NCBI GenBank assembly: GCA_022013385.1
Contig: JAKLQJ010000202.1
Location: 1 to 49,201 of the forward strand
Origin: Elusimicrobiota bacterium
GTDB taxonomy: Bacteria; Elusimicrobiota; Elusimicrobia; Elusimicrobiales; UBA9959
Direction of reading: 5' to 3'
Length of the DNA: 49,201 nt
Shown here piece by piece: positions 1,248-22,936 of the stretch. Within the stretch, counting starts at the first letter, position 1; every line of letters starts with the position of its first letter. Under the pieces are notes generated by a model. The model did no database searches. It was not told the origin of the DNA and saw only the letters and a list, made by a program, of their open reading frames with translations. The position numbers and the translations under genes were made by a program.

Positions 1248-4200
1248 CTACTTCATTATTTTATCTCTCAATGCCTGATATGAATCAATGACATCGTATT
1301 TAATATCTGCATGCCCCAGGGCTTCAAAGTGTTTTCTCGCATAGCTGATTTTCTTCTGCTCTATTTCTTTTAATTGCAGGCTTTCCATGCTGCCTTTTGT
1401 TTCCGCGATAAAATAGACATACTTGTATTTATCGGTATCAAAAACTATCGCCCAATCAGGGGAATAATTTCCCAGCGGAGTTGGTATTTGAAAACCTTTT
1501 TGGCCTCTCGGTAATTTCGCGTAAACCAATACATCTTCTGTTTCAAGCGCCTTCGCGAAATCTCTTTCTATTTTAGAATCGGTTTTAACATAGTCATGCA
1601 CATGTTTTTTCACTTCGAGGATATTGTCCGCGAGAGAACCTTTAAAATTGTTTATGGTGAATATTTTGTCATCGTAGGATTGGTCTGTCTTTGAATAGAC
1701 AATATTATTGATGAGGGTTGCCGCTTTTTCACTGTTGATAAGATTTACAACTCCGTGTATAAAACTCTCCGGATTTACTTTGAAGTTATGAAAAGTATCA
1801 ACGCGCAGACTCTGCAATATCTTAACGACCGTCCTTCTTGTAAGGTTCGTCTCTTTCGCGATTTCAGCCACTAAATCATACTTCAACGAACCAAGGAGCG
1901 AATCGGCCTTTTCAGTAATATTCTTTTGTTTTTTCATGCTTTCGCCGGATTTGAGGCTTGATTCGTCAATTTTGTCTTCTTGTTCACCCGAAGTAATATG
2001 CACCAGAATCTTCTTAACCGTTAGATTCTTATCAATGGCTTCCGCGCTCTTTTTAATCAGTTCGTCGCTATCAAAATCCACCTCATAAACAGTTTTGACT
2101 TTTATTTTTTTCCATAAATCCTGAAACTCTTTTTTAGCGAAATTCTCGTTAGGTTTTAAAACATCGGCAGTTACATTGTTCGCATTTTCATTTTCTGACG
2201 CTTTAAAATTAGCCGTTGTGTAGATCTTGCTCATCAGATCGGCAACTTGTGTTTCAAACCCTTTTAACTTCTCCGGTACCTTATATTTTTTATCCGAGAT
2301 ATCTTTAATCAGCGTATCCGTTATCTGGTAAGCCTCGTTTACGTACCCTTTTGTTTTGAGGTCAAAAATCAGATCCATCGACGTCTGATTGTCAAAAATA
2401 AACTTCTCACCTTTGTCATTGTTTAAAACAAGGTCTTTCAATACATCGATGGTCAGCTTAACCGGCCTTTCAGAAAGCGACTCAACGATCTCGTTCTGCA
2501 ATTCTCTCGCAAAAGAGTCATACGATTCACTGGCAACAACGGTTAACTTATTCACATCAAAAAACTCCCCCTCGAGCACTGATGTGTCCATCCTGTCACC
2601 GTTGGAATTAACGCAGATTCTTAAACCCCGGCCAATCTCCTGCCTTTTACTTATGGTTGACTGGCTGTGCTTTAGAGTGCATATCTGAAAAATATTTGGA
2701 TTATCCCAGCCTTCCCGAAGCGCCGAGTGAGAAAATATAAACCTCGTCGGCTCCTTCAGATCCAAGAGTTTCTCTTTATTCTTCATGATGAGGTCATAAG
2801 CGCTCTCATCATCACTCCCGCCTTCACTCTTTTTCTCTTTAGAATCAACAAAGTGGCCTTTCTTATCGATCGAGAAATATCCTTTATGAATATCCTCAAC
2901 CGGATGCCCCAAAAGATATTTATTGTATTCTTCTTCAAAAAGGTTAAGTTGGCTTATGGCTTCCCTGTACTCCTCTTCGAAAACTTGCGCGTAATCACCC
3001 TTCTGATCAGGATTAGAGTAATCACGGTATTTCACCACCTCATTAATAAAGAACAGCGACAACACCTTGATCCCCTTCGCGAACATGATCCGTTCTTTTT
3101 CAATATGCGACTTTATTGTCTCCCGTATCTGAATACGCCGCACATGTTCTTCATCGACATGCCCTGCGGTCTGCCCGACGGATAATTTAACGCCATTTGT
3201 AAACGTTACCGTATTACTCAATCCATTAATTTCTTTTACAACAAATCCTTTGTATTGCTTAAGCTCATTGGATAAAACAAACAAATCATCCTTTTCCTTG
3301 ATCTGCCTGATTTTCTTCTGAATACCACTCGCCTGCTTTACTTCAAGCTCCACATAAGCAACCGGATATTTATCTGTGCTGATCTGGATCCGATCCATAA
3401 ACAAATAGCTGTTGGTTCCGCTGTTCCCCACGACTTCAATACCCTTCACGCTAATCTTTTTAACTAATTTCTGGTTATAGGCATCAATAGCGTCAAGGCG
3501 GTAGATTTTATTAAAATCTCGTCTGTGGGTCGCGGAATAACGCAAAGTGAACAACTGGTCAAATTCCCTGTCGGAAAAAATCTTTTCCGCCTTCTCCCCA
3601 AATCTTTGCGGCTCATCAATGATCAAGATCGGACGCGCTCTCTTTATGATATCGATCGGCTTCTCGGACTGCAGAGTATCGAGCTTCTGGAAAATTTTTC
3701 TGGATTCCTGACTGGTTGTGGCAAAGGCCTGATAATTCATAATGATCACTTCAATATTCGAGGTGTCCGCAAAGCTCTTGATATTAATGAGATTTGACTT
3801 GTTCTGGGTGTTGTAAATGGAAAAACGGATCTTTTTGCCGTATATTTCCTGAAAATGCTCTGCGGTTATTTCAAGGGATTTATGTACACCTTCACGAATA
3901 GCCACCGATGGCACCATGATAATAAACTTGTTCCAGCCATAATGCTTATTCAGCTCATACATAGTTTTGGTATAAACATAGGTTTTGCCGGTTCCAGTCT
4001 CCATTTCAATGGTAAAATTAAGACCATCTAACCAATCAACTACCTTTAACCCCTGTTCTTTTTGCAAGGTTTGAACATTCTTTAAAATATCACTATCGGT
4101 GATTCCCAGTTTTTTGTTGGAAAAAATCTCTTCAACTTTAATCTCTGTGCCAAATAGACCTCCGTCAATTGTTTTTCTGCTGACTACTTCTTTTCTGCCA

Positions 4201-4283
4201 CCTTTGCTTTGCCCTTCAAAACATCTGATAACTGCTGAGGCGGCATCGGCCTGATACTGCTGGTGTTTAAATTGCAGTTTCAT
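1248..4283 (-). CDS. res: Type III restriction enzyme Res subunit (DEAD/DEAH-type helicase plus C-terminal PD-(D/E)xK nuclease)
   Basis: Walker A 'METGTGKTY' and motif II 'IIDEPQRF'. C-terminal nuclease-like 'SPDWAIVFD...YFIAETKG'. 1011 aa. The ATG overlaps the rhuM stop (ATGA at 4280-4283). Confidence 0.9.
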   Translation of the reverse strand: MKLQFKHQQYQADAASAVIRCFEGQSKGGRKEVVSRKTIDGGLFGTEIKVEEIFSNKKLGITDSDILKNVQTLQKEQGLKVVDWLDGLNFTIEMETGTGKTYVYTKTMYELNKHYGWNKFIIMVPSVAIREGVHKSLEITAEHFQEIYGKKIRFSIYNTQNKSNLINIKSFADTSNIEVIIMNYQAFATTSQESRKIFQKLDTLQSEKPIDIIKRARPILIIDEPQRFGEKAEKIFSDREFDQLFTLRYSATHRRDFNKIYRLDAIDAYNQKLVKKISVKGIEVVGNSGTNSYLFMDRIQISTDKYPVAYVELEVKQASGIQKKIRQIKEKDDLFVLSNELKQYKGFVVKEINGLSNTVTFTNGVKLSVGQTAGHVDEEHVRRIQIRETIKSHIEKERIMFAKGIKVLSLFFINEVVKYRDYSNPDQKGDYAQVFEEEYREAISQLNLFEEEYNKYLLGHPVEDIHKGYFSIDKKGHFVDSKEKKSEGGSDDESAYDLIMKNKEKLLDLKEPTRFIFSHSALREGWDNPNIFQICTLKHSQSTISKRQEIGRGLRICVNSNGDRMDTSVLEGEFFDVNKLTVVASESYDSFARELQNEIVESLSERPVKLTIDVLKDLVLNNDKGEKFIFDNQTSMDLIFDLKTKGYVNEAYQITDTLIKDISDKKYKVPEKLKGFETQVADLMSKIYTTANFKASENENANNVTADVLKPNENFAKKEFQDLWKKIKVKTVYEVDFDSDELIKKSAEAIDKNLTVKKILVHITSGEQEDKIDESSLKSGESMKKQKNITEKADSLLGSLKYDLVAEIAKETNLTRRTVVKILQSLRVDTFHNFKVNPESFIHGVVNLINSEKAATLINNIVYSKTDQSYDDKIFTINNFKGSLADNILEVKKHVHDYVKTDSKIERDFAKALETEDVLVYAKLPRGQKGFQIPTPLGNYSPDWAIVFDTDKYKYVYFIAETKGSMESLQLKEIEQKKISYARKHFEALGHADIKYDVIDSYQALRDKIMK

Positions 4284-5329
4284 GCTTCGCTCCCATTCTT
4301 GCCAATCCGTTTTTTGATTTCTTTATCAAAATCCGATTCAAAAAGATTGTCCTGAATAGGACGGTATTTTTCAAATTCGCCTTCCGCAAATGCTTTGGCA
4401 ATTTCTGCAGTAACTTTTCCCGCATCTTGCAAAATTTCTTCTTCGTTAAACTGTAAAAAAGCATCCAATTTTGCAACCCAGTCTTCCATAGTCATGGGAA
4501 TTCTTTTTTCTGCCTGATGTTCGGCATAATCAAGGTACATGGTAACAAAACGATTTAATGGCGTTAACTCTTCTTCATTAAGGTAATTTTTAGCTATGTT
4601 CACATCAGATTTTCTAATTTTGCCATGAGGAGAATTTTTCCATGAAGTAAGACCCATCTTGTCTTTTTTATGATTAACTCGTGAAACTATGATTTCTGCC
4701 GCTGTTTGTTTGGTTATTGCCCAGTGAAGTTTATTTTGCACAGTAGCAAAAAACTTTTGCGTTATCTCTGAGCTTACATTGTAATCAATACTACATTCCG
4801 CATAAATATCAGTGATTTTCTGATACAACCTTCGTTCACTACTGCGAATATCTCTAATTTTTTCAAGCTGTTCATCAAAATAATCTTTACCGAAAACAGG
4901 TTTTGGATTTTTCAAACGCTCCACATCCATTGTGTAGCCTTTAATGATATACTCTTTGAGAACTTGTGTCGCCCAGATACGGAATTGAGTTGCCCTCATT
5001 GAGTTGACTCTGTACCCAACAGCAATAATCGCATCAAGATTATAAAATTTTGTCTGGTTTACCTGATATTTGCCCTCAATCGCCCCATGCTGGGTGGGTA
5101 TTTCCAAAATGGAAACAACCACTTCTTCATCAAGTTCTTTTGTTGCAAAGATATTTTTTAAATGTTTCGATACAGCGGGTACTCCAACATCAAAAAGCTG
5201 AGCTATTTTCTTCTGCGACAGCCAGATAGTCTCATTTTGCAGGTAAACATCAATTTTTACATCACCATTGGGATTCTTATAAAGCAAAAATTCTGTTAGT
5301 TTTTGATTTTTCTCTATATCTTTTTTCAT
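4280..5329 (-). CDS. rhuM: RhuM-family protein (virulence-protein RhuM-like; often embedded in R-M operons)
   Basis: N-terminal region 'IWLSQKKIAQLF...VSKHLKNIF...YNLDAIIAVGYRVNSMRATQFRIWATQVLKEYIIKGYTMDVERLKNP' matches the conserved RhuM core as I remember it. One nt separates the mod stop from its ATG, and a 4-nt overlap joins it to res. Confidence 0.8.
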   Translation of the reverse strand: MKKDIEKNQKLTEFLLYKNPNGDVKIDVYLQNETIWLSQKKIAQLFDVGVPAVSKHLKNIFATKELDEEVVVSILEIPTQHGAIEGKYQVNQTKFYNLDAIIAVGYRVNSMRATQFRIWATQVLKEYIIKGYTMDVERLKNPKPVFGKDYFDEQLEKIRDIRSSERRLYQKITDIYAECSIDYNVSSEITQKFFATVQNKLHWAITKQTAAEIIVSRVNHKKDKMGLTSWKNSPHGKIRKSDVNIAKNYLNEEELTPLNRFVTMYLDYAEHQAEKRIPMTMEDWVAKLDAFLQFNEEEILQDAGKVTAEIAKAFAEGEFEKYRPIQDNLFESDFDKEIKKRIGKNGSEA

Positions 5330-5330
5330 A

Positions 5331-7457
5331 TCATATCACCGTAACCTTTGTTTCAGGTGAGAGCCTCTTAAACCGTTCTTCCACATTAATACGGTCTTTG
5401 TCATCTTTGAAGCTGGCATCTTTGAATACAACTTTAAATGGCTTTAAAGCTGCTATAGAATCCACGATCTTGAAATCAATATCATTATCAAAGCAGGCCA
5501 CAAGAGCATTGGTCTGAACAATGAAAACGGTATTTTCCAGCATTTTCTTTGTTTCAACCGGCAGAGAGAGCTCCAAACCCAGATCAAGAATCACCTGAGT
5601 TAAAAGATCTTCCGGGGTACGGTCTTCTTTGATGTTGCTTTCAAGTTTAAAAAGTTCTTCTTGTTTAAGTTTAGCCGGATGATAAAACACATCTTTCATG
5701 TTGGTATCAGCGGTTTTGTAAACACGGAAACCGATATCAAGATTTTTTTGCCACGAAAGGCACGAAAGGTCACTAAAAGTTTCTTCTTTATTTTCACTGA
5801 ATAAACTTTTCTGGCTTTTCCCTTCTTCTTTTTCGTGTTTTTTCGTGTTTTTCGTGGCTAATTCTTCCAGTATCTTCTTCCCCGCGCGGCGGATACGTTC
5901 TTTGCCTATTTCGGCGATGGTTTTATAACCGGCTTTATAAGCTTCGCTGTTTTCGTCGGTTTTTTCGGGGAGCTGAACCATGATGAATTTGCGTTTACCC
6001 TTTTTTTGCCACGAAACACACGAAAGGTCACGAAATTTTTCTGAATCGGCATTCCCTTCATTTTCGTGTTTTTTCGTGTTTTTAGTGGCAAACTCTTCCA
6101 TCAGTTCTTCGGCGTTGAGTTGCATTACTGCGTGGGCGGTGGTGGCAGAACCTGAGAAGAAGTCGAGAATGACTGAATCGCTTTTGGTAGAAATTTTAAG
6201 TAACCGTTTAATTAGATCTACAGGTTTAGGAAAATCGAAATATTTTTTGTTATCGAACAGTGCCTTTGTTTCGAGTGTACCTCTATCTGTTTTGATTTCT
6301 TTATCATTCCAAATTGTATTTAACGTATATGTAACAGCACGGTATTTTTTTACAATTTGATAACCTGCCTCATTCTTAGCTTCCTTAGCGAAGAGAACAG
6401 TATTCAAATTATTTGCTGCTTTTTCTTTACCCCATCTCCAAACAGTTTTAATTCCTTGAGATTCTTGTGGATATACTTCTACCCACCCTTGTTTATTAAC
6501 AAGTGAAATTTCAAACAGCTTGTTTTCATCCATATTATTTGGATTAACATAAAACGGATAATAAAGATTTGGCCGATTTTCAACATTAAAGGTTATATTC
6601 CTATTTCTTAATTCGTACAAATCAAATCCACCTTTATCATCTTTATCATTAAACTCTTTTTCTGTATCTTCTAGAATTTCATATATAAAATCCTGATATT
6701 TAGAATACACAAGGATATACTCATGGGTTGTAGCTAATGAGCCATAAGGTCTTGCGCGCGAATCATTTTCTAAACAAATTGTATTTAACAAATTCCCCTC
6801 ACCATAAATTTCATCGCATATTTTTTTTAAATTATCTTGTTCACCATCATCAATACTAATAAAAATTACCCCATCATCCTTCAACAAATCCCTCGCAACA
6901 ATAAGCCTCTCATACATCATACTCAACCAGTCGGAATGAAACCTACCATTGCTATCGGTATTCCTAAATAGCTTTCCGCCTTCTTCATCAGTAGTTCCCA
7001 GTTCTTCTTCATACTCTTCTTTACTTTTCTTAAAATCATCTTTATAAATAAAATCATTTCCCGTATTATAGGGCGGGTCAATGTATATCATCTTTACTTT
7101 ACCCAAATAGCTCTCCTGCAAAATCTTCAACACTTCAAAGTTATCACCTTCAATATAAAGATTTTCCGTAGTATCGAAATTTACAGATTCTTCACGGCAA
7201 GGGCGCAAGGTTTTGGTAATTGGGATATTAGCTTTTAGTAAGGATGCCTTTTCCCCCGGCCAGTCAAGGCGATAGCGTTCGTTATCATCCTCCACCAGAG
7301 TTTTAGATAAAGCTTGTTTCAGCAGGTCAAAATCCACCGCTTTTTTAACCACGCCGTTTTCATCTCTTGTTTCGGTTATCACATTGGGAAACAATTGTGC
7401 GATCTGTTCAATATTCTTATCGGTTAAATCGGGTGTCTGCATTTTTAGTTTATCCAT
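5331..7457 (-). CDS. mod: Type III R-M Mod subunit, N6-adenine/N4-cytosine DNA methyltransferase (beta class)
   Basis: Catalytic motif IV 'IYIDPPYNTG' and AdoMet motif I 'ILDFFSGSATTAHAV'. The conserved tail 'RKFIMVQLPE...KAGYKTIAEIGKERIRRAGKKI...LDIGFRVYK' is interrupted by two repeat-derived inserts. Confidence 0.9.
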   Translation of the reverse strand: MDKLKMQTPDLTDKNIEQIAQLFPNVITETRDENGVVKKAVDFDLLKQALSKTLVEDDNERYRLDWPGEKASLLKANIPITKTLRPCREESVNFDTTENLYIEGDNFEVLKILQESYLGKVKMIYIDPPYNTGNDFIYKDDFKKSKEEYEEELGTTDEEGGKLFRNTDSNGRFHSDWLSMMYERLIVARDLLKDDGVIFISIDDGEQDNLKKICDEIYGEGNLLNTICLENDSRARPYGSLATTHEYILVYSKYQDFIYEILEDTEKEFNDKDDKGGFDLYELRNRNITFNVENRPNLYYPFYVNPNNMDENKLFEISLVNKQGWVEVYPQESQGIKTVWRWGKEKAANNLNTVLFAKEAKNEAGYQIVKKYRAVTYTLNTIWNDKEIKTDRGTLETKALFDNKKYFDFPKPVDLIKRLLKISTKSDSVILDFFSGSATTAHAVMQLNAEELMEEFATKNTKKHENEGNADSEKFRDLSCVSWQKKGKRKFIMVQLPEKTDENSEAYKAGYKTIAEIGKERIRRAGKKILEELATKNTKKHEKEEGKSQKSLFSENKEETFSDLSCLSWQKNLDIGFRVYKTADTNMKDVFYHPAKLKQEELFKLESNIKEDRTPEDLLTQVILDLGLELSLPVETKKMLENTVFIVQTNALVACFDNDIDFKIVDSIAALKPFKVVFKDASFKDDKDRINVEERFKRLSPETKVTVI
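5750..5858. repeat. palindromic 'GCCACGAAA' element, copy A, in-frame inside mod
   Basis: Left arm gccacgaaaggcacgaaaggtcac and right arm ttttcgtgttttttcgtgtttttcgtggc are reverse complements. Translated on the minus strand as ATKNTKKHEKEEGKSQKSLFSENKEETFSDLSCLSWQ. Confidence 0.8.
6008..6089. repeat. palindromic 'GCCACGAAA' element, copy B, in-frame inside mod
   Basis: Arms gccacgaaacacacgaaaggtcacgaaa ... ttttcgtgttttttcgtgtttttagtggc. Translated as ATKNTKKHENEGNADSEKFRDLSCVSWQ, the same frame and peptide ends as copy A. Confidence 0.8.
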
Positions 7458-7477
7458 TTATTTATCCCCTTTATCAA

Positions 7478-7503
7478 CCATTTTCCCGGCATCGGGAAAA
7501 TGG
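7478..7503 (-). promoter_or_regulatory. perfect 11-bp stem / 4-nt loop hairpin between the DUF4391 gene and mod
   Basis: ccattttcccg-gcat-cgggaaaatgg. On the minus strand it ends about 20 nt before the mod ATG (followed by ttgataaaggggataaataaATG). No U-tract follows, so it is not a classical terminator. Confidence 0.5.
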
Positions 7504-7522
7504 TCTTAAGTTTTTTTATAAT

Positions 7523-8164
7523 TCATAATTTACAATTCATAATTATATCCAACTGTTTCTTTCTTTCCAGTAATACCTTATTTATCTCAACCTTACGGTT
7601 AAACTGTTTCTCTTTTGATATTTTGTTCCGTAAAACACTGATCTCGTTTTCTAAAGCCTTGATCTTGTTATCAATATCTATGATCTCATTAAAACTGCTT
7701 TTAGCTTGCGCTTCAGTTCGTATAAAGGTTTTTACTATCTTTTGATATACCTTTTCAAGATCAATACCGGTAAAATCAAAGTGCTTCTCTTCGTTCCAAT
7801 CAGAGAAGTAATAGTTTTCGGCGTTTTTGTTCTCTTTTAATGTGATCCCGTATGCCTCGTTTTCTTTGTAGATAAAGCGGTACAAAATCTGATACGGAAT
7901 GGCTTTATCAATGACCTTAAGGACGTTTTTGGGTATCACCTGTTCTTTAAGCTCAATTTCAAATATCTGTATCTCGATTACCTTGTCGGTTTTCGCAATA
8001 CCGACGGTGCTTTCAGCCAGTTTATATTTCCAGGTAATCTTCTGTATTTTATCAACAAACTCTTTCTGCAGCTTCGCGCTTAAAACCGCCTTCTCATAAA
8101 ACTTGTTCTTTGGAATAAATTTATTTACAAAAGCGGCCCTTGGTAATTTAAAGTTATCATTCAC
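7523..8164 (-). CDS. DUF4391-like protein
   Basis: 213-aa ORF with a GTG start (cac at 8162-8164) preceded by AAGGA. Size, the N-terminal 'LPRAAFVNKFIPKNKFYEKA' segment and its position between an SNF2 helicase and a Mod methylase fit the DUF4391 family as I recall it. Needs an HMM check. Confidence 0.65.
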   Translation of the reverse strand: MNDNFKLPRAAFVNKFIPKNKFYEKAVLSAKLQKEFVDKIQKITWKYKLAESTVGIAKTDKVIEIQIFEIELKEQVIPKNVLKVIDKAIPYQILYRFIYKENEAYGITLKENKNAENYYFSDWNEEKHFDFTGIDLEKVYQKIVKTFIRTEAQAKSSFNEIIDIDNKIKALENEISVLRNKISKEKQFNRKVEINKVLLERKKQLDIIMNCKL

Positions 8165-8181
8165 GATTAATCCTTTTTTTT

Positions 8182-8264
8182 GCCACTAAATACACAAAAG
8201 GTCACGAAAATTTTCTGTATCATTTTTTTTCTTCCTTTTAGTTTTTTTTCGTGTTTTTCGTGGC
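8182..8264. repeat. palindromic 'GCCACGAAA' element, copy C, intergenic
   Basis: gccactaaatacacaaaaggtcacgaaaa ... ttttttttcgtgtttttcgtggc. Lies between the GxxExxY stop and the DUF4391 start. Confidence 0.75.
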
Positions 8265-8284
8265 TATCTCTTTATTCCACTTGC

Positions 8285-8659
8285 TCATAGTATGATTCTT
8301 TTAATCTCAACCTTAGGATATGAACCAAAATTAATAACCAGGCCGAGTTTTAGACCTGTTGCTTTCAAATAATTTAAAACCTGTGCCTGATGCTCTTTTG
8401 CAATTATTTTTACACCTTTTATTTCCACAATTATTTTATCAAACAAAATAAAATCAGGCTTATACGTTTGATTTAACTTATCACCTTTATATTTTATTTC
8501 TAAGTTTTTCTTAGAAACAAAAGGTATATTATTCTTTGAAAATTCTATTTCCAGGCACTCTTGATAAACAGCCTCTAAATAACCATTTCCCATTTCTTTA
8601 TATACTTCAAAAACAGCTCCCTGAATCAAATAGCTCTCATCCTTATAAATTAAATCCAT
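8285..8659 (-). CDS. GxxExxY protein (PD-(D/E)xK-fold family)
   Basis: Eponymous motif 'GNGYLEAVYQECL'. Downstream 'YKPDFILFDKIIVEIKG' is a nuclease-fold-like D...ExK. 124 aa. Confidence 0.8.
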   Translation of the reverse strand: MDLIYKDESYLIQGAVFEVYKEMGNGYLEAVYQECLEIEFSKNNIPFVSKKNLEIKYKGDKLNQTYKPDFILFDKIIVEIKGVKIIAKEHQAQVLNYLKATGLKLGLVINFGSYPKVEIKRIIL

Positions 8660-8670
8660 AATTATAAATC

Positions 8671-8700
8671 CTTTTCGTGTAATTTCGTGCCTTTCGTGGC
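8671..8700. repeat. solo right arm of the 'GCCACGAAA' element (copy D)
   Basis: cttttcgtgtaatttcgtgcctttcgtggc, between the GxxExxY start (8659) and the SNF2 stop (8707). Same orientation as the right arm of copy C. Confidence 0.65.
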
Positions 8701-8706
8701 TTATTC

Positions 8707-11700
8707 TTATTTTATCACCACAAAGGTAAGCAGTTCAAAATCCTCCAGCCCCTTTATATTGTTCATAAGAGCCGTTGTTCCGCCTGATGCAAATAGGCTG
8801 TCGACATCGCTTTCGTCCTTCATGCGGAGCGCTGATTCGATGGATTTATTTAAAAGATCGGAATACTTTTCCATATTCTTCCCATCGTCAGTCTCATCGT
8901 TAAATAATTCATAAACATCTTTTATCGCGTCACTATTTCCTTTGCAAAGCGCGCGGAGAATATCCAATGTGTTTTTTACATTCAAATGATTTGATACTAT
9001 TTTCCCCTCCGCGCTTATATACACCAGATAAAACAGATGAAGCTGATTGGTTTTATCAATATTAACTTCGCTGTTTATATTTTTTAAAACAAAAACCACG
9101 CCTTCTTCAATCCCGCGCTCTATGTCTTTTTTGCAAACAGCATGCATTCCATTGGCAACGCTTGCAAGGCTCCCGTTGGCTTTTATGTAGTTCACCAAAT
9201 CCATGCGGAAATCATTTAATCCTAAGTCGGTTATGGAAACCCCCGAACCCATCTCTTCAATATCCACTATCTCTTCCTGCAATTTTTCCAGTTGTTTTTT
9301 TCTGAATAGTAAATCCGAAGATTTATTGGTCAGGACATTATCTTCGCCGGTTGCCGTCGCGTCAACCATAAACATTTTGTTTTCAACCCGATTTTTCAGA
9401 TTTATATAATCATCAAGAGATAATTGAGGCCAGAAGTTAATCAGCTGGATATCTTTGTTAATCGACCCAATTCTATCTATACGCCCAAACCGTTGGATAA
9501 TACGCACGGGGTTCCAATGGATATCATAATTGATCAGCATGTCGCAATCCTGCAGATTTTGCCCTTCGGAAATACAATCCGTGGCAATTAGAACATCTAT
9601 CTCGGGAGCGGCTTTATCTTTGCGCTCTTTGGATCGGGGGGAAAAATTGGTCAGAATATTATTGAAGTTGTTATTTAATTTCAGGGTTGTCTGATTTTCA
9701 TTTGAGCCGGTTAGCTTAGCGGTTTCCAGATTAAGAGTTTTATTGTATCCGGCAAGGTTCTCGTATAAATAGTTCACCGTATCCGCAAAAGCGCTGAATA
9801 TCAGGATTTTTTTATTTCCCGGATTTATAGGGGCTTGGGGTTTGTTTTTAATAAAAGCCTTCAAATCTCTAAGCTTTGTATCGCGCGCGGGTGTTACTTT
9901 TTCCATCTCTCTAAATATTGCCTTAGCAATAAGAACATCGGCCTCCAAATCCTGTTTCCATCCGGAAGTGTTCATATCCTCTAGATTGACTTTTACTTTT
10001 CCGCCGACATTAAATTCATCATTCAGCCAATCATCGCTGTCAGCATCCAGATTGATATCATTAAACTGGGTAGCCTCGACTGAAGTTTGAACGCCGGTCT
10101 TTTCAAACGCTTCGATTTTGTCGATAATCCGCTCAATCTCTTTTATAAATTTACCAAGAGTGATCCTGAATGAATCAACTGAACTCTCTAATCTCTTGAG
10201 AAAATTTACCCTCATTAATGTAGTAAGACCTTTTTCTCTATTTGATAATCTTGAGACAAGATTACCAGCAACATTAGTATCATATAAACCACTATAAAAT
10301 TCCCGTTTACTTTCAAGGATATACTCAGTGGGTGAGTATATAGCTAATGTTAATTTCGAGAGTTCCTTATAAAGTTCTGATATTTCAATAAACCCTTCAA
10401 GGTCCGTTATATCCGCGTGATGGGTAATCGGCTTTAACCTGTTGGGGAATTTGCCAATCTTATTTATATCATAATACTTCTCGATATGTTTTCTGCTTCG
10501 GGCTATTGTGACACTATCAAGTAATTTGAAGAAATCAAAATTCGCATTGAGCCGCTTCAAGAGATCTTGGCTGGTTCTTTCTTTTACCGGCAGTTTAGAC
10601 CATGTGTTAAATATCCTCTGAGCATTGGTCAAAATAGTTTCGATTGATTTATCCGCATCCATTTTCCCATCAGCTATACCTGTTTCACCTTCACAAGCCA
10701 AAGCGATCTGATTTTTTAGATCAGTAAACCTGTTATTGACCGGCGTTGCTGAGAGCATAAGGACTTTAGTTTTAACCCCTGCCTTCATCACATCATTCAA
10801 AAGTCTTTGATATCGGGTTAGCCTATCTTTTCGCGGGTCATTATTTCTAAAATTATGCGATTCATCAATTACGACTAAATCGTAATTACCCCAATTTATT
10901 CTTGATAAGTCTATTCCGTTTGATTCACCACGATCACGAGATAAATCTGTATGATATAAAACATGATAATTCAGGCGGTCTTTGATTAAAGGATTGTCAT
11001 CATAATTATTCAAAAATGTTTGCCAGTTATCCCCCAGTCTTTTGGGACAAAGGACAAGTACGGTGCGGTTTCTCTCCTGATAATATTTAATAACGCCTAA
11101 TGCTGAAAAAGTCTTACCAAGTCCGACGCTATCGGCAAGAATACATCCATTGTGCCGCTCTAGTTTATTAATAATTCCTAAGGCGGCGTCTTTTTGGAAA
11201 TCGTAGAGTTTATTCCAAATCACAGATTTCTTAAATCCGGTTTTTTCATTAGCAAGTTCATCTTCGGAAATGTCTTCTAAAAACTCATCAAAAATATTGT
11301 AAAGCGCCAGATAGTAGATAAATTCAGGGGAGTTTTCCTTATAAAGGTCAGCAATGTATCCGAGAACTTCGTCGGTTACATTTTTCAATACCTTCTCATT
11401 GTTCCAAACTTCTTCAAAACTTTGGATGTATTGCTTAGTCGCTTCATAATCATCTGTTTTGATGATCTGGTGCAGAATAGAATTATCTTTTTTATAGCCA
11501 AAACCAGCGCTGCTAAATTCGTTTATCCCCATGTACACATATTTATTATCACCATTTTCAAGCGTTATATGTGGCTGGATATATTTGTTCCCTATGTTGG
11601 CCTTGAATACTGCTTTTTGTTCTATCCATTTTTTACACTCCATGGCAATAGCTTTTCCCTTGAGTTCATTTTTCAACTTTATTTCAAACTCAGACCCGCT

Positions 11701-11958
11701 AATGGCTTTTTGCCGAAAATCAGCCTTAATTTGAAATTGTTTTTTCTCTCGTCTATTTTTATCAACCTCAATGAAGGTAGGATCTGTAAATATGAAGCTT
11801 AACTTATCGATCTTTTTTAATTCGGTGTTGAGACATTCGAAACCATATATAGAAAAAATACCAGCCGCAACTTGCAGTCGGCTGTCTTTACCGATATTCT
11901 TTTTAAAATCATCACCGACTTTCTCGGTTTTATTATTAAAGCTTTGAATCATAGCCAT
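8707..11958 (-). CDS. SNF2/Rad54-family helicase-related protein with a long N-terminal extension
   Basis: Motif I 'LADSVGLGKT', motif II 'VVIDESHNFRN', motif III 'LMLSATPVNN', C-terminal helicase lobe 'ISEGQNLQDCD...NYDIHWNPVRIIQRFGRIDRIGS'. 1083 aa. Confidence 0.9.
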   Translation of the reverse strand: MAMIQSFNNKTEKVGDDFKKNIGKDSRLQVAAGIFSIYGFECLNTELKKIDKLSFIFTDPTFIEVDKNRREKKQFQIKADFRQKAISGSEFEIKLKNELKGKAIAMECKKWIEQKAVFKANIGNKYIQPHITLENGDNKYVYMGINEFSSAGFGYKKDNSILHQIIKTDDYEATKQYIQSFEEVWNNEKVLKNVTDEVLGYIADLYKENSPEFIYYLALYNIFDEFLEDISEDELANEKTGFKKSVIWNKLYDFQKDAALGIINKLERHNGCILADSVGLGKTFSALGVIKYYQERNRTVLVLCPKRLGDNWQTFLNNYDDNPLIKDRLNYHVLYHTDLSRDRGESNGIDLSRINWGNYDLVVIDESHNFRNNDPRKDRLTRYQRLLNDVMKAGVKTKVLMLSATPVNNRFTDLKNQIALACEGETGIADGKMDADKSIETILTNAQRIFNTWSKLPVKERTSQDLLKRLNANFDFFKLLDSVTIARSRKHIEKYYDINKIGKFPNRLKPITHHADITDLEGFIEISELYKELSKLTLAIYSPTEYILESKREFYSGLYDTNVAGNLVSRLSNREKGLTTLMRVNFLKRLESSVDSFRITLGKFIKEIERIIDKIEAFEKTGVQTSVEATQFNDINLDADSDDWLNDEFNVGGKVKVNLEDMNTSGWKQDLEADVLIAKAIFREMEKVTPARDTKLRDLKAFIKNKPQAPINPGNKKILIFSAFADTVNYLYENLAGYNKTLNLETAKLTGSNENQTTLKLNNNFNNILTNFSPRSKERKDKAAPEIDVLIATDCISEGQNLQDCDMLINYDIHWNPVRIIQRFGRIDRIGSINKDIQLINFWPQLSLDDYINLKNRVENKMFMVDATATGEDNVLTNKSSDLLFRKKQLEKLQEEIVDIEEMGSGVSITDLGLNDFRMDLVNYIKANGSLASVANGMHAVCKKDIERGIEEGVVFVLKNINSEVNIDKTNQLHLFYLVYISAEGKIVSNHLNVKNTLDILRALCKGNSDAIKDVYELFNDETDDGKNMEKYSDLLNKSIESALRMKDESDVDSLFASGGTTALMNNIKGLEDFELLTFVVIK

Positions 11959-12071
11959 ATATTACAAAATATATAATAGGGCTTTCCTTCATGTCGGACT
12001 GAGGGTAATTCCGATGTATCGTAATTCGGGTGGGATTCTCCCCCCAATAGCATTAAGGTCAAATAAAAGGA

Positions 12072-12370
12072 ATTGGCAAAGATTTTGTGGCGAACGACTT
12101 TGGGTTTTTGACCGAGGATTTGGTCGTTCGCAGAGCTTCCGACACCTTATGTGGCATAGCCACCTTGTTTGCAGTGAATTCTACTATGAACAGCGAGGAT
12201 GTTTGAAGGCAAAAGCTATGCCTTTTGACTGAGTGGACTGGGCTCTCGGAAGGACAGCTGTGGACACAAGTTCTCGAGTTTCTATCCCGCAGTGTTCCGG
12301 AAACTGACGAAAAATCCGAAGGTCACATAATTAAAAAACCTGCGAGGAGTGAGTGCAAAACTTTGCCAAT
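12072..12370. ncRNA. candidate structured RNA domain (unknown family), closed by long-range pairing
   Basis: 12072-12086 (attggcaaagatttt) is complementary to 12356-12370 (aaaactttgccaat) with a 1-nt bulge. Internal perfect hairpins: gcgaacgac 12090-98 / gtcgttcgc 12123-31; gtggc-ata-gccac 12151-63; aaggca-aaagcta-tgcctt 12206-24. Visibly GC-richer than its surroundings. Overlapping ORFs look non-coding. Strand unknown. Confidence 0.25.
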
Positions 12371-12403
12371 GACTAAACATGACTGCATAAATATAACCGA
12401 TTC

Positions 12404-12444
12404 AACCCCGCGGGATTCCTTGACAGCAGGCAACCCACGGGGTT
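12404..12444. repeat. CCCCGCGGG...CCCACGGGG hairpin repeat, copy 1
   Basis: aaccccgcggg (12404-14) pairs with cccacggggtt (12434-44), one mismatch, 19-nt loop. Confidence 0.7.
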
Positions 12445-12483
12445 TTATCAATCTCGAGTGTGTTTGTAATTATTTTCATTCCA

Positions 12484-12531
12484 ATCCCCGCGGGTTCTTG
12501 GTTAAACACATTGAACCTAATCCGCGGGGAT
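12484..12531. repeat. CCCCGCGG...CCGCGGGG hairpin repeat, copy 2
   Basis: atccccgcgg (12484-93) pairs perfectly with ccgcggggat (12522-31). The 28-nt loop contains its own ggtt/aacc stem. Confidence 0.7.
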
Positions 12532-12540
12532 GCTAAACAT

Positions 12541-12586
12541 TTGCGTCAAAGCAAAATTTTACATGTAAATATTTGCTTTGACGCAA
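12541..12586. repeat. 46-bp near-perfect palindrome
   Basis: ttgcgtcaaagcaaa (12541-55) and tttgctttgacgcaa (12572-86) are exact reverse complements. The centre tttacatgtaaa is itself palindromic. An A-run follows. Confidence 0.8.
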
Positions 12587-12633
12587 AAAATATCATACTT
12601 TCGTAATTAGTTAGCGGCAAGGTAATTAGGCAA

Positions 12634-12650
12634 TCCCGCCTATGGCGGGA
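12634..12650. repeat. TCCCGCC-WWW-GGCGGGA hairpin (REP-like family)
   Basis: tcccgcctatggcggga. Confidence 0.75.
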
Positions 12651-12780
12651 CAACAAGAAATAAGGAATAGTTTCCTCATACAAATCGGCATTAACCCTTA
12701 CAGAAACTTCATTACATTTCCCGCGAATAGGTCATTCTCAACGGTTTAAGCTGTCATTTTCACATTAAAGTTTAAATTAG

Positions 12781-12797
12781 TCCCGCCATAGGCGGGA
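12781..12797. repeat. TCCCGCC-WWW-GGCGGGA hairpin (REP-like family)
   Basis: tcccgccataggcggga. Confidence 0.75.
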
Positions 12798-12860
12798 AGC
12801 TACACTTTGAAATTTCTCTAATAGCGTCTATATTTTGTACTACGGGATGGAAGTATACTT

Positions 12861-12892
12861 CTAATCGCCAGCTAATCGCCATAATCGCCAAC
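12861..12892. repeat. short tandem repeat (TAATCGCCA x3)
   Basis: ctaatcgccagctaatcgccataatcgccaac. Confidence 0.6.
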
Positions 12893-13060
12893 TTTTCACC
12901 AACTAATTGCCAGCTAAGAGATAACAATTACTAAGTCTCTTACATTTTGTTATTGGCTTATTTTTGACTCATAAAGAATATAAAATAAAGATCTCTTTCC
13001 TACGCCCTTTAAAGTAAAAACTTTTTTTTTATGTCAACTCCGTTAAATCGCGAGACGCTG

Positions 13061-13273
13061 TTATTTGACCACTTCCCAGTGTCCCCCTTTATCAGGACCT
13101 ACCCTTTTAAGAAGCTTCTTTTTCCTGAGCGCGTCAATGTGTTTTCGAATCGCGGATACATTGATGTCCAGTTTATTCGCAAGCTCATTGCGCGATATTG
13201 AAGGATTTGCTCGAATAATATTTAAAACAGTTAATTGCTTAGAGGTGATTTTCTGGCCACCTTTTCTGGCCAC
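13061..13273 (-). CDS. small winged-helix/HTH DNA-binding protein (70 aa from GTG; 77 aa if the 13-bp duplication is collapsed)
   Basis: 'LTVLNIIRANPSISRNELANKLDINVSAIRKHIDALRKKKLLKRVG' is a typical wHTH recognition module. The ORF starts at GTG (cac 13271-73). The upstream ATG at 13305-07 is out of frame because of the tandem duplication. Confidence 0.6.
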   Translation of the reverse strand: MARKGGQKITSKQLTVLNIIRANPSISRNELANKLDINVSAIRKHIDALRKKKLLKRVGPDKGGHWEVVK

Positions 13274-13274
13274 C
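13249..13274. repeat. perfect 13-bp tandem duplication (ttttctggccacc x2) at the 5' end of the wHTH gene
   Basis: 13249-13261 equals 13262-13274. 13 is not a multiple of 3. Confidence 0.9.
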
Positions 13275-13766
13275 TTTTCCTGTGGTTTCCTGCTTTAATG
13301 CGCTCATCGTTCGATAAAATGTTACTATAAATCCGCTTTTGATTTTATTGAATTCCACTTTCACATTATATAACATTGAGATTAGAGTCCGAGAGTCTTG
13401 ATGCTAAGCGTCTGAGAGTCCAAACAAATAGAGAATCTCATTATGTAGGGTGGGTAATACAGCGTATCAATGATTAGGGAGCGGACATATTTCTTCCACT
13501 TAATATAAAAGTCAAATCAAAAGCATGGTAGTTGTGTTTGCTCAACAGGGATGTTCGGAACCCGACTTGGGCTTATTCGGAGGGTGAGAGACATAAGGGC
13601 GACCTCTAGGAGACCCTGGTCCTGTGAGTAAATACAACTGGTATGCCATGCAAGACAATTCAAATATTTAGTATATAAGAAAGGTTACTTTCATTTTGGC
13701 GCCACACTCCCACAAGATAAAAGTCAAATAAAAAGCGGGTGAAAAAATTTAATGAGAGGAATTTCG

Positions 13767-13808
13767 CCATGGGCATGTCATGGGTTTATCCCATGGTTTA
13801 TCCCGTGG
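13767..13808 (+). repeat. 42-bp repeat, copy 1 (ccatgggcatgtcatgggtttatcccatggtttatcccgtgg)
   Basis: Differs by 1 nt from 17458-17499. Contains internal tandem ggtttatccc(a/g)tgg units. Confidence 0.85.
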
Positions 13809-13900
13809 CGAAAGGCCTCTAATCACAGTGACCCGCTGAATAGTTACAATGACAAATCATTAATTGTAGTTCTTTACTCCATATATGGGATAATAGGTAT

Positions 13901-15256
13901 ATGACCGACGATACAACAAGACCCGCATCAGCCGATAGTTTTTATGGCCTAGGCATCGCGCCTAAACTCATGGAAACTTTAGATAAACTCAAATGTAAAA
14001 TTCCCACGCCCATACAGAAGAAAGCCATACCAATTGCCTCCCAAGGCAAAGACATAGTGGGCATAGCCCAGACCGGCACCGGTAAAACCATAGCTTTCGC
14101 CATACCAATGGTTCAGAGATTGGCGGCCGCCCAAAGAGAAAAAGGTTTAGTGCTCGTTCCCACGCGGGAATTGGCATTGCAGGTAGCCGAAGTTATAAAG
14201 GAGTTCTCGTCGGTGATGGGTATTCGAACCGCTGTGATAATAGGCGGCGAGAGTATTAAACATCAGCTTCGGGAATTGCGCAAAAAACCCCGCATACTAA
14301 TAGCCACGCCGGGCCGTCTTATAGACCATTTAAACCATCACACCGTGAATCTTTCAGATGTCCGCGTACTTGTGCTGGATGAGGCCGATCGTATGTTTGA
14401 TATGGGTTTTGCCCCCCAGATAAAAAAAATAATTGAATACATCACGACAAAGCGGCAGACCATGCTTTTTTCCGCCACCATGCCAGGCCAAATAATGAAA
14501 CTAGCCGCAGAGCATATGAAAATTCCCACCCGCATTGAAGTAGCCCGCTCGGGCACTGTGGCAGATGATGTGAAGCAAGAACTTTTTATAGTAAGCCGCG
14601 GCGATAAGCCCGCCCTGCTTGCCAAACTATTGGACAAATATTGGGGTACCGTGCTCTTGTTCGTGCGCACCAAGCGCAGCGCAACCAGAATTGCGGCCGC
14701 CATACGCGCACTGCCGCATAATGCAACCGAAATACATTCAAATCGTTCTCTCGCTCAGCGCCGCAGAGCTCTTGATGGTTTTAAATCAGGGCAATTCCGC
14801 GTGCTAGTGGCCACCGATGTGGCGGCGCGAGGCATAGATGTGACAGACATAGAACTGGTAATAAATTATGATCTTCCCGATGAGGAAGGTAATTATGTGC
14901 ACCGCATAGGCCGCACCGGCCGCGCCGGGAAGCCCGGCCATGCCATAACATTTGCCGCGCCGGAACAAGGCAGAGAGGTAAGGACTATTGAAGGTATGAT
15001 GCGCATGGACTTGCCAATTTCTATGCACCCGGACATCGCATCGTGTAGAGAGGGCTTTGGTTCAAATTATAAAGGCAAGGGAAAAGGCAAAAAACAGAAG
15101 CATGGAGAAAAGCGCGGTACGGGAGAAAAACACAGTCACGGAGAAAAGCGCAGTCCCTCAGCGCATCAGAAACCGCGACATAGGTCAAATAATAATCCTT
15201 ATGCCAAACAGCGCGCTAGAGCGCGCGCCCGCCGCAATGCGGGAATCGGCCGCTAA
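13901..15256 (+). CDS. rhlE: DEAD-box ATP-dependent RNA helicase (RhlE-like) with a basic C-terminal tail
   Basis: Q-motif region 'PTPIQKKAIP', motif I 'AQTGTGKT', motif II 'VLDEADRM', 'SAT', motif VI 'YVHRIGRTGRAG'. Lys/Arg/His-rich tail. Confidence 0.92.
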   Translation: MTDDTTRPASADSFYGLGIAPKLMETLDKLKCKIPTPIQKKAIPIASQGKDIVGIAQTGTGKTIAFAIPMVQRLAAAQREKGLVLVPTRELALQVAEVIKEFSSVMGIRTAVIIGGESIKHQLRELRKKPRILIATPGRLIDHLNHHTVNLSDVRVLVLDEADRMFDMGFAPQIKKIIEYITTKRQTMLFSATMPGQIMKLAAEHMKIPTRIEVARSGTVADDVKQELFIVSRGDKPALLAKLLDKYWGTVLLFVRTKRSATRIAAAIRALPHNATEIHSNRSLAQRRRALDGFKSGQFRVLVATDVAARGIDVTDIELVINYDLPDEEGNYVHRIGRTGRAGKPGHAITFAAPEQGREVRTIEGMMRMDLPISMHPDIASCREGFGSNYKGKGKGKKQKHGEKRGTGEKHSHGEKRSPSAHQKPRHRSNNNPYAKQRARARARRNAGIGR

Positions 15257-15290
15257 AAAATAAATAACAAAAAACGGAAATAAGTAAATA

Positions 15291-15451
15291 TAGAGGTATG
15301 GATGTGTAGAAGAATAGAGGCATGGATGTATAGAGACGTGGAGGCGTGGAAGAATAGAGGCGTGGAAGAATAGAGGTGTGGAAGCGTGGATGTATGGAAA
15401 CATAGAAGATTAGCTTGGCAGTAACAATATTAAAAATCCGAGAGTCCAAAC
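15291..15451 (+). repeat. about 160-bp composite repeat, left copy (C-poor tandem ~8/16-bp units, then ..GGCAGTAACAATATTAAAAATC.GAGAGTCCAAAC)
   Basis: Units of the type tagaggcgtggaagaa. Direct-repeat partner at 17201-17357. Confidence 0.8.
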
Positions 15452-15469
15452 TCAACTCTGAACTCTAAA

Positions 15470-17167: not shown

Positions 17168-17200
17168 GATCTTTAATGTCTAATATTATATAACAATAGA

Positions 17201-17357
17201 TAGAGGCGGGGAAAAGAATAGAGGCGAATAGAGGCATGGAGGCGTGGAAGAATAGAGGCGAATAGAGGCGTGGAGGTATAAGAGGCATGGAGGTGTGGAA
17301 GCGTGGAAGAATAGCAATAACTTGGCGGTAACAATATTAAAAATCAGAGAGTCCAAA
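17201..17357 (+). repeat. about 160-bp composite repeat, right copy
   Basis: Shares ggaggcgtggaagaatagaggcg, ggtgtggaagcgtgga and cttggcggtaacaatattaaaaatcagagagtccaaac with 15291-15451. Same orientation. Confidence 0.8.
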
Positions 17358-17360
17358 CAA

Positions 17361-17404
17361 AATTAGGCTACAAGGTAATTAGGCAACAAGGCAATAAGGA
17401 ACAG
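17361..17404 (+). repeat. 'GGTAATTAGGCAACAAGG' intergenic module
   Basis: attaggctacaaggtaattaggcaacaaggcaataaggaacag. Confidence 0.75.
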
Positions 17405-17457
17405 AGTCAAAACACAACCCTACACTTTACAACTTTACCCCGATATACATCAGGGTA

Positions 17458-17499
17458 CCATGGGCATGTCATGGGTTTATCCCATGGTTTATCCCATGG
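17458..17499 (+). repeat. 42-bp repeat, copy 2
   Basis: ccatgggcatgtcatgggtttatcccatggtttatcccatgg. Confidence 0.85.
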
Positions 17500-17505
17500 T
17501 AAACT

Positions 17506-19442: not shown

Positions 19443-19534
19443 TCTCTTATTATAATAAAAAAAGAACTGTTTTTGATAAACAGTTCCCCTTACAAATTTC
19501 CATTAATAATGAAAATTCGCTAATTAGAATATTT

Positions 19535-19571
19535 TATGTGAGCGCGAAATTCGCGCTCACATAATTTTTTG
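19535..19571. terminator. strong GC hairpin with a T-run downstream of the tal-pgi gene
   Basis: tatgtgagcgcga-aat-tcgcgctcacata followed by attttttg on the plus strand. The U-tract is on the plus strand although the flanking genes are minus-strand, so orientation and function are uncertain. Confidence 0.45.
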
Positions 19572-19594
19572 AGAGAGTGTAAAAAACGGTCAGT

Positions 19595-22855: not shown

Positions 22856-22875
22856 TTTAATTCCCCCACTAAGGG

Positions 22876-22936
22876 AGTAACGAGTAATTAGTAATGGGAA
22901 TTTCCCTAATTTATTTGTTGTTAATTACTCGTTACT
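22876..22936 (-). promoter_or_regulatory. 15-bp perfect inverted repeat (long hairpin) between rpiB and tal-pgi
   Basis: agtaacgagtaatta (22876-90) pairs with taattactcgttact (22922-36). The inner part contains gggaa-t-ttccc. On the minus strand it ends 21 nt before the tal-pgi ATG, followed by a GGGGGAA Shine-Dalgarno. Confidence 0.5.

Follow-up and report, generated by a model that had tools for sequence, protein, structure and literature searches.

A conserved and widespread Type III-like restriction-modification cassette in which an SNF2-family ATPase and a DUF4391 protein accompany Mod and Res

Textbook Type III restriction-modification (R-M) systems, as worked out on EcoP15I and EcoP1I, consist of two subunits, Mod and Res, hemimethylate an asymmetric site, and rely for ATP-dependent cleavage on ATP-triggered sliding and on two unmodified head-to-head sites. 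DISARM class 1 is composed of DrmA, DrmB, and DrmC together with DrmD and DrmMI, and ARMADA II of the SNF2 protein ArmA, the methylase ArmB, ArmC, and ArmD. Hma consists of HmaA, an SNF2 protein with a C-terminal PD-(D/E)xK nuclease, the 5-methylcytosine (m5C) methyltransferase HmaB, and the AAA+ protein HmaC (PMC11232893). MANTIS (Gao_RL) contains a DUF499 AAA+ ATPase (MtsA), a small DUF3870 protein (MtsB), a methyltransferase (MtsC), and an active PLD-helicase (MtsD), of which the accessory AAA+ ATPase and the small protein are required for loading and activating the methyltransferase, and the PLD-helicase performs restriction (bioRxiv 10.64898/2026.09.23.753747). Here, a stretch of 49,201 nt from an Elusimicrobiota bacterium (contig JAKLQJ010000202.1, assembly GCA_022013385.1), referred to in its entirety as the window, was analysed for a cassette in which the genes for a Mod and a Res protein are preceded by those for an SNF2-family ATPase and a DUF4391 protein (Table 1). 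This cassette represents a real, conserved, widespread, and apparently uncharacterized four-component variant of Type III R-M, whose mechanism is inferred only. On balance, it is probable that SNF2, DUF4391, Mod, and Res, in this order, form a horizontally mobile anti-phage or anti-plasmid cassette, derived from Type III R-M, the products of which most likely work as one machine.

All six open reading frames (ORFs) of the gene string that had been predicted from the DNA letters were retrieved on the minus strand at positions 1248-11958, with the SNF2 gene first and the res gene last in the reading direction, and profile hidden Markov model and PADLOC searches on the six proteins upheld every family assignment of this original prediction. 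The Mod protein, a predicted DPPY methyltransferase, contained the motifs IDPPY and FSGSATT, matched PF01555 (N6_N4_Mtase) and, end to end, the PADLOC model MTase_III (707 bits), and had EcoP15I Mod (4zcf_A; E 3e-56) as its closest PDB relative. Similarly, Res matched ResIII and RE_endonuc (PF19778) as well as, end to end, the PADLOC model REase_III (945 bits), its sole PDB match being EcoP15I Res (4zcf_C; E 2e-64). Its score against the NCBIfam type III endonuclease equivalog (365 bits) was under the cut-off of 564. The architecture of Res is that of an SF2 ATPase with a C-terminal PD-(D/E)xK endonuclease, and the motifs GTGKT, DEPQ (IIDEPQRF), and PD...ExK (SPDW...AETKG) were read in its translation, so that of the DEAH and PD-(D/E)xK signatures foreseen for this protein the latter was present and the former was not, motif II being DEPQ.

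Variation between closely related cassettes was concentrated in Mod. Compared with L001 (L-numbers denote cassette loci read for comparison), the window proteins were 92% (SNF2), 92% (Res), and 86% (DUF4391) identical, and Mod was 61% identical overall. The central target-recognition region of Mod was only 22-38% identical to that of L001, while the flanks of this region were at least 90% identical; the same region was 72-84% identical to that of L020. At the sequence level, this pattern is as expected for target-recognition domain swapping, with SNF2, DUF4391, and Res as the constant parts beside a variable Mod. As only the target-recognition region of Mod varies between near-identical cassettes, Mod sets the specificity of both self-methylation and targeting.

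A forward synteny survey was performed by scanning one-genome-per-species contigs with an alignment of 24 DUF4391 sequences, which yielded 484 confirmed relatives. The best 80 of these at least 484 relatives (34-83% identity to the DUF4391 protein of the window) were taken as loci, and the window proteins were searched against all stop-to-stop ORFs of these 80 loci. The SNF2 gene was located directly upstream of the DUF4391 gene in 70 of the 73 testable loci; downstream of the DUF4391 gene, mod was present in 63/64 and res in 51/52 testable loci. The order and strand of the cassette genes were identical throughout, the exceptions being contig ends or lineages with suspected UGA recoding. These loci belonged to Bacillota, Bacteroidota, Omnitrophota, Desulfobacterota, Spirochaetota, Planctomycetota, Fibrobacterota, candidate phyla radiation (CPR) phyla, and Woesearchaeota (DPANN archaea). 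Moreover, the bit scores of the four core proteins co-varied across the 80 loci (Spearman 0.62-0.81). In L001, in which the cassette is uninterrupted, the end of the SNF2 gene coincides with the start of the DUF4391 gene at position 10001, and mod and res follow after gaps of 2 nt each. No fifth conserved gene was found in the flanks of the 80 loci, and the flanks of related loci contained integrases, recombinases, and other defence genes.

Two groups of loci in this survey deserve separate mention. In L043, L048, L051, and L054, which belong to Gracilibacteria, Peribacteria, and Vampirococcus, the cassette appeared split into many short ORFs under translation table 11; UGA is presumably read as a codon in these lineages. 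Two Woesearchaeota contigs (L010 and L024) contained the same cassette, with a DUF4391 protein that was 72-82% identical to that of the window; such high identity indicates either a recent inter-domain transfer or mis-binned contigs.

In a reverse survey, Res was searched against 72,556 plasmids; the matches fell into three groups, the neighbourhoods of which were sampled. Of the plasmid-borne Res homologues that were sampled and were about 35% identical or more, all but one occurred in SNF2-DUF4391(-like)-methyltransferase-Res cassettes, one group of Res on plasmids consisting of homologues of about 35-38% identity. The canonical plasmid matches, annotated as type III restriction-modification system endonucleases, aligned partially at 26-33% identity, and the canonical Type III locus of Glaesserella contained mod and res only. 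The sampled plasmids bearing the cassette originated from Escherichia coli (IncFIB), Acinetobacter sp. NEB149, Listeria, Bacillus cereus, Paraburkholderia, and Enterococcus faecium. In the Listeria cassette, a hypothetical protein of 185 amino acids was a DUF4391 match by hhalign (probability 99.4%). The E. coli cassette (L089; plasmid CP095457.1, 3193-12220) neighbours repA on IncFIB plasmids, which are about 110-180 kb in size, and was found in 10 of the 5,426 complete E. coli genomes, nine times on a plasmid and once on the chromosome; its presence on E. coli plasmids makes the cassette directly testable by experiment. On a B. cereus plasmid (L097; NZ_AP022875.1, 274723-288456), genes for DrmA and a DUF1998 protein (DrmB) were found directly upstream of the SNF2, DUF4391, methyltransferase, and res genes, all in one gene string, so that a version of the cassette linked to DISARM exists. 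As the forward and reverse surveys both revealed a conserved linkage of SNF2 and DUF4391 with Mod and Res, an accidental adjacency of these genes fails as an explanation, and the surmise of a conserved partnership between these two genes and the mod-res pair was borne out.

The occurrence of the cassette on plasmids and beside recombinases and integrases might also be read as a sign of a role other than defence, i.e., that of an epigenetic or chromatin-type regulator, with a phasevarion-like Mod and a remodeller, or that of a selfish addiction module of mobile elements, the more so as Type III mod genes are generally known as phase-variable regulators in some pathogens. Such a role is highly improbable, as no simple-sequence repeats were found in mod, Res is intact and highly conserved, the target-recognition domain diversifies as in arms-race systems, and both the neighbours and the embedded genes of the cassette are of the defence type.

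The first core protein had been recognized by the motifs DSVGLGKT, DESH, and SATP. Its translation contained DSVGLGKT, DESH, LSATP, and QRFGRIDR intact, Pfam SNF2-rel_dom and Helicase_C matched above their gathering cut-offs, and its PDB sequence matches were SMARCA5, Snf2, RapA, and ISWI. It is the best-conserved component of the cassette, with a full-length identity of 42-92% across all cassettes compared; in distant cassettes, the identity was 42-50%, versus 24-39% for DUF4391. The top PADLOC match, over the full length, was the candidate family C3a139 'HKD+Snf2' (438 bits). The DrmD model reached only 122-149 bits versus an equivalog cut-off of 610, and the HmaA model 95 bits, restricted to the helicase C lobe. 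The C-terminal domain gave no match in Pfam and PDB sequence searches; its mean column identity was 77% over nine diverse cassettes.

The N-terminal part of the SNF2 protein, of about 200 residues, had no sequence-level match in Pfam and PDB. An AlphaFold2 (AF2) model of this domain, built on a 37-sequence alignment (core pLDDT 82-97, mean only 74), gave 22 Foldseek matches in the PDB at E ≤ 1e-3, all of which were PLD-superfamily or PLD-like (TrmBL2) proteins. SauUSI was the top match (7clg; E 5e-6), and further matches were the NgoAVII R-protein (4rct), PssA (phosphatidylserine synthase), NucT, TrmBL2, and human BJ-TSA-9; Zucchini and BfiI matched at E 1e-3 to 2e-2. The catalytic pattern HxK(x)4D was not present in this domain, which reads H-I-T-L-E-N-G-D in the window; the remaining clades that were aligned or read have Q, F, or M instead of the His of HxK and lack the Lys. 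These findings fit the 'HKD+Snf2' family as the top PADLOC match and mean that the SNF2 protein has a SauUSI-like build with a predicted dead nuclease domain. Since the PLD domain has lost the HxK residues, Res is the sole predicted active core nuclease. The expectation of two motors, a single methylase, and a single obvious nuclease thus stands, for its nuclease part, when limited to predicted active core nucleases; the embedded GxxExxY protein, itself belonging to the PD-(D/E)xK family, and the degenerate PLD domain of SNF2 are of nuclease families too.

The high conservation of SNF2 would fit a control or counter-counter-defence function, in which SNF2 and DUF4391 would strip phage anti-restriction proteins or bound roadblocks off the DNA, or would prevent self-cleavage (restriction alleviation) at the unmethylated sites that arise during replication if only one strand is methylated. 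It is general knowledge that SNF2 enzymes such as RapA and Mot1 displace DNA-bound proteins and that Type III hemimethylation leaves sites transiently unmodified. Nevertheless, this function has a low probability, given that no sequence feature points specifically to it, that canonical Type III systems do without such a module, and that Pfam and PDB searches of the SNF2 termini recognized no sensor or inhibitor-binding domain.

The second core protein, expected to be DUF4391-like and of about 210 amino acids, matched PF14335 over profile positions 1-232 of 232 (E 3.7e-44; 151.8 bits versus a cut-off of 29.9). When clustered at 50% identity, the DUF4391 family forms about 1,300 clusters, and at 90% over 6,700; nearly all of its members are standalone proteins of 200-230 amino acids; the long members P0234 and P0243 contain extra unrecognized sequence that is neither Mod nor SNF2. 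According to the AF2 model (pLDDT 88.6, pTM 0.80), the protein of the window consists of an α/β domain (amino acids 1-150), followed by a two-helix hairpin (amino acids 158-209), the turn of which holds EKQFN with the family-invariant Q187. A Foldseek search of this model against PDB and BFVD gave no match below E 0.05, and coiled coils were the only matches of the DUF4391 profile to PDB sequences. A PD-(D/E)xK nuclease nature of DUF4391 was rejected as unsupported, since SPARDA, Hjc, and tRNA-splicing endonuclease were retrieved by Foldseek only at E ≥ 0.13 with a probability of at most 0.2, and E71-x-K73 of the window protein was unconserved in the family. Likewise, a relationship to phage proteins was rejected, as BFVD gave no match.

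Since Mod and Res are accompanied by SNF2 and DUF4391, a four-part rather than a two-part machine is probable. In such a machine, SNF2 would be a translocase or remodeller of double-stranded DNA, which may dimerize or contact DNA via its dead PLD domain, as does the PLD domain in SauUSI, and the helical hairpin of DUF4391 would link SNF2 with the Mod2-Res complex. The module of SNF2 and DUF4391 might then constitute an ATP-dependent licensing or communication step on unmodified sites, in that it would either load or activate Mod at these sites or act as a moving motor that triggers cleavage by Res on collision. Restriction, and perhaps methylation too, would require both ATPases. For such a dual-ATPase requirement MANTIS provides a demonstrated precedent, and the recurrent pairs of SNF2 and a methyltransferase in DISARM class 1, ARMADA, and BREX are suggestive of it.

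A more far-reaching possibility, put forward tentatively, is that the cassette constitutes a distinct R-M class, in which a dead-nuclease SNF2 translocase and a DUF4391 adaptor of new fold would render a Type III Mod dependent on ATP for recognizing its sites, thereby licensing methylation and Res cleavage or lifting the two-inverted-site rule. If true, this would provide a Type III counterpart of the dual-ATPase logic that has been shown for MANTIS and is suspected for BREX, DISARM, and ARMADA, and thousands of Type III R-M calls would be miscounted by current tools.

Several points weigh against one machine. The physical association of SNF2 and DUF4391 with Mod and Res is inferred from synteny, and no fusions of DUF4391 with Mod or SNF2 were found in the family. 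The role of DUF4391 as an adaptor is a guess, the protein being without a recognizable fold relative. Furthermore, the forward survey was confined to members of at least 34% identity, so that more distant DUF4391 members lay outside it, and a Hydrogenophilus plasmid contained Mod and Res of the same clade without SNF2 and DUF4391, with insertion sequence (IS) elements abutting mod. Tight translational coupling appears not to be essential, as the junctions accept inserted genes. Finally, Mod and Res retain every canonical motif and may in principle be self-sufficient.

The latter points lead to the idea of two co-inherited modules linked by synergy, namely a self-sufficient Mod plus Res and an independent SNF2 plus DUF4391, which would sense or combat invaders by other means, such as a second restriction mode or a back-up when R-M is inhibited. 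This is considered unlikely. It would account for Mod and Res being complete EcoP15I-type proteins and for the tolerance of unrelated embedded genes at the cassette junctions; also, the nearest PADLOC family of the SNF2 protein is a stand-alone candidate, and the activity of the drmD and drmMI pair of Serratia DISARM is partly separable (bioRxiv 10.1101/2021.12.28.474362). Yet no lone half occurred in the sample, save for the Mod-Res pair of Hydrogenophilus beside IS elements, and SNF2 plus DUF4391 would be devoid of a predicted active effector because the PLD domain lacks HxK. In addition, the fixed order and near-zero spacing of the genes over many bacterial phyla and DPANN archaea weigh against two separate modules.

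Two further genes, coding for a GxxExxY and a RhuM protein, are embedded in the cassette of the window. Both proteins were matched over their full length and above curated cut-offs, RhuM by PF13310 (E 7e-112) and PADLOC PDC-S05 (500 bits), and GxxExxY by TIGR04256 (E 2e-41) and PF13366 (PDDEXK_3; E 3e-41). Their classification as passengers was substantiated by the related loci. Of the 80 loci, 14 had a rhuM gene inside the cassette, nearly always at the Mod|Res junction, and the gene was missing from the close relatives L001-L008; the GxxExxY gene was missing from most related cassettes, including L001-L004, and was also present at the SNF2|DUF4391 junction in L020, L032, and L045. L020 and L032 contained both genes at the junctions of the window, plus one more ORF each at DUF4391|Mod. 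Moreover, genes for ORF6N, KilA-N, Bro-N, or YhcG/DUF1016 proteins occupied the same junctions (DUF4391|Mod and Mod|Res) in L012, L014, L025, L029, L032, L033, L045, and L047, and further embedded ORFs in L058, L059, L060, L064, L067, L071, and L084 had no Pfam match. Their absence from the closest cassettes indicates that RhuM and GxxExxY are not core parts; by comparison of these sequences, they are independently acquired embedded genes. The junctions in the window were as foreseen, with a 4-nt overlap of rhuM and res (gcATGAaa) and a 1-nt spacer between mod and rhuM (TGA-t-ATG).

Embedded genes have been described in Hma, BREX, DISARM, and Type I R-M under the term guilt by embedding (Payne et al., bioRxiv 10.1101/2024.01.29.577857), and RhuM corresponds to the phage-defence candidate PDC-S05 of PADLOC (bioRxiv 10.1101/2024.01.29.577857). 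The cassette resembles those operons in that RhuM and GxxExxY are co-oriented between core genes. The SNF2-DUF4391-Mod-Res cassette is not among the hosts named in the main text of Payne et al. (bioRxiv 10.1101/2024.01.29.577857), where type III refers to DRT type III.

Palindromic elements, each about 95-120 nt long and with the arm sequence GCCACGAAA-NN-CACGAAA, are also part of the cassette of the window. Seven such arms were present in the window versus 0.07 expected by chance, and all seven fall inside the cassette. Two units are in frame inside mod and have the general translation ATKNTKKHE...FRDLSC(V/L)SWQ. The one nearer to the rhuM gene (RNA fold -31.9 kcal/mol, z -4.9 versus shuffles) is translated as ATKNTKKHE...FSDLSCLSWQ, in a variable linker that is about 22 amino acids longer than in most relatives, and the same element is present in L032. 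The other one (-32.7 kcal/mol, z -6.2 versus shuffles) forms an insert of 34 amino acids past motif I, which is missing in L001, L005, L011, and others. These in-mod units resemble the in-frame palindromic elements of Rickettsia. Palindromic arms flank the GxxExxY gene on both sides (8177-8711), and the same element was found inside the cassettes L020, L024, L027, L032, and L045, three of these five also containing a GxxExxY gene. The GxxExxY gene and the hairpin repeats may represent one mobile unit, with the solo arms as its footprints. The spacer between the DUF4391 and mod genes is 65 nt long in the window versus just 2 nt in relatives, and contains a stem-loop of its own, which could serve as an attenuator or in RNA processing.

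Upstream (5') of the SNF2 gene, a near-perfect palindrome of 24+24 nt (12540-12587) and a perfect inverted repeat pair of 18 nt (12634-12651 and 12780-12797) were found. This area, together with small, unassigned plus-strand ORFs (12014-12536), may have a regulatory role or mark the boundary of an island. Scans for promoters and terminators in the window gave no signal above shuffled sequence, and neither tRNA nor Rfam features were found in it. Further along, an ORF with transaldolase and phosphoglucose isomerase domains lies in a block of housekeeping genes, which also encodes pyruvate kinase, RpiB, and an M28 peptidase, indicating a chromosomal context for the cassette; another large ORF is found at the far end of the window.

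Table 1. Features of the cassette and of its surroundings, with positions in the window
Feature	Position	Strand	Details
Res, Type III, fourth core gene	1248-4283	-	1011 aa
RhuM-family protein, embedded passenger	4280-5329	-	349 aa
Mod, Type III beta-class DPPY methyltransferase, third core gene	5331-7457	-	708 aa
Palindromic unit in frame inside mod	5745-5865	-	arms GCCACGAAANNCACGAAA at 5750-5767 (+) and 5841-5858 (-)
Second palindromic unit in frame inside mod	6003-6095	-	arms at 6008-6025 (+) and 6072-6089 (-)
Variable target-recognition region of Mod	6258-6860	-	aa ~200-400; from alignment to L001 and L020
Stem-loop in the DUF4391|mod spacer	7477-7504	not assigned	stem of 12-13 bp, -20.1 kcal/mol, z -6.45
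DUF4391 protein, second core gene	7523-8164	-	213 aa, GTG start
Third palindromic unit, in the GxxExxY|DUF4391 gap	8177-8270	-	fold z -3.9
GxxExxY / PDDEXK_3 protein, embedded passenger	8285-8659	-	124 aa
Solo palindromic arm upstream of GxxExxY	8683-8700		
SNF2-family ATPase, first core gene	8707-11958	-	1083 aa
C-terminal domain of SNF2	8710-9411	-	aa 850-1083; conserved, no family assigned
N-terminal PLD/HKD-fold domain of SNF2, predicted catalytically inactive	11344-11958	-	aa 1 to ~205; AF2 and Foldseek
ORF with transaldolase and phosphoglucose isomerase domains	19595-22855		1086 aa
ORF at the far end of the window	43171-48921	-	1916 aa

In agreement with the supposition that the arrangement is uncharacterized, no description of the cassette was found in the searchable literature, which did not include REBASE, subscription journals, and supplementary tables, so that a prior informal recognition is possible. 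The searchable literature contained no mention of PF14335 either, and the term DUF4391 occurred in a table entry and in a Goslar phage paper, where it apparently is a slip for DUF7941. PADLOC-DB 2.0 contains no DUF4391 model; PADLOC would call the cassette a plain Type III R-M system, and PGAP annotates the four genes separately. The Type III-like Mod and Res proteins that occur with SNF2 and DUF4391 make up a large clade spanning several phyla, with at least 484 species-level DUF4391 matches and thousands of protein clusters. If the four proteins cooperate, such loci are under-described by defence-finding tools, a common DUF gains a function, and the pairing of SNF2 and a methyltransferase in DISARM, ARMADA, and BREX obtains a simpler model with known Mod and Res biochemistry.

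Membership of Hma, ARMADA, MANTIS, or DISARM was ruled out by composition. The cassette differs from Hma in that it contains neither an HmaC ATPase nor an m5C methylase. With DISARM class 1 (DrmD and DrmMI) and ARMADA II (ArmA and ArmB) it has in common a defence operon that is based on methylation and pairs an SNF2 ATPase with an adenine methyltransferase, but the methylase is a Type III Mod instead of a DrmMI or PglX-like protein, and the nuclease is Res. DrmA, DrmB, and DrmC had no match in the window ORFs at 13-1002 and 12014-23451, and DrmA and DrmB were found in none of the 80 related loci. SauUSI and the 'HKD+Snf2' family (C3a139) display the same succession of an N-terminal PLD fold, an SF2 motor, and a C-terminal domain as the SNF2 protein, which differs from them in the family-wide lack of HxK and in its constant association with DUF4391, Mod, and Res. 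The likeness to MANTIS is one of logic, as in both an accessory ATPase and a small co-factor accompany an adenine methyltransferase with site specificity and an effector that combines helicase and nuclease; both also have two different ATPases and an SF2 motor fused to a PLD fold. Pfam and PADLOC searches found no DUF499 AAA+ MtsA, DUF3870 MtsB, or active PLD-helicase MtsD in the cassette, and PADLOC gave no match to MANTIS as a system; the accessory parts are non-homologous (SNF2 versus the DUF499 AAA+ ATPase, and DUF4391 versus DUF3870), and the PLD-helicase is here an accessory motor, predicted to be inactive, the effector being a PD-(D/E)xK Type III Res. Lastly, the cassette resembles the Type III R-M systems EcoP15I and EcoP1I (Mod2Res) in that its Mod and Res are full-length homologues, both assigned to Type III by PADLOC, with mod directly upstream of res; these sequences indicate its descent from Type III R-M. 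It differs from them in that this clade of Res, scoring below the NCBIfam equivalog cut-off, comes with SNF2 and DUF4391 upstream. As it thus exceeds the two genes of such systems, the cassette is filed as a Type III variant and not as a plain member.

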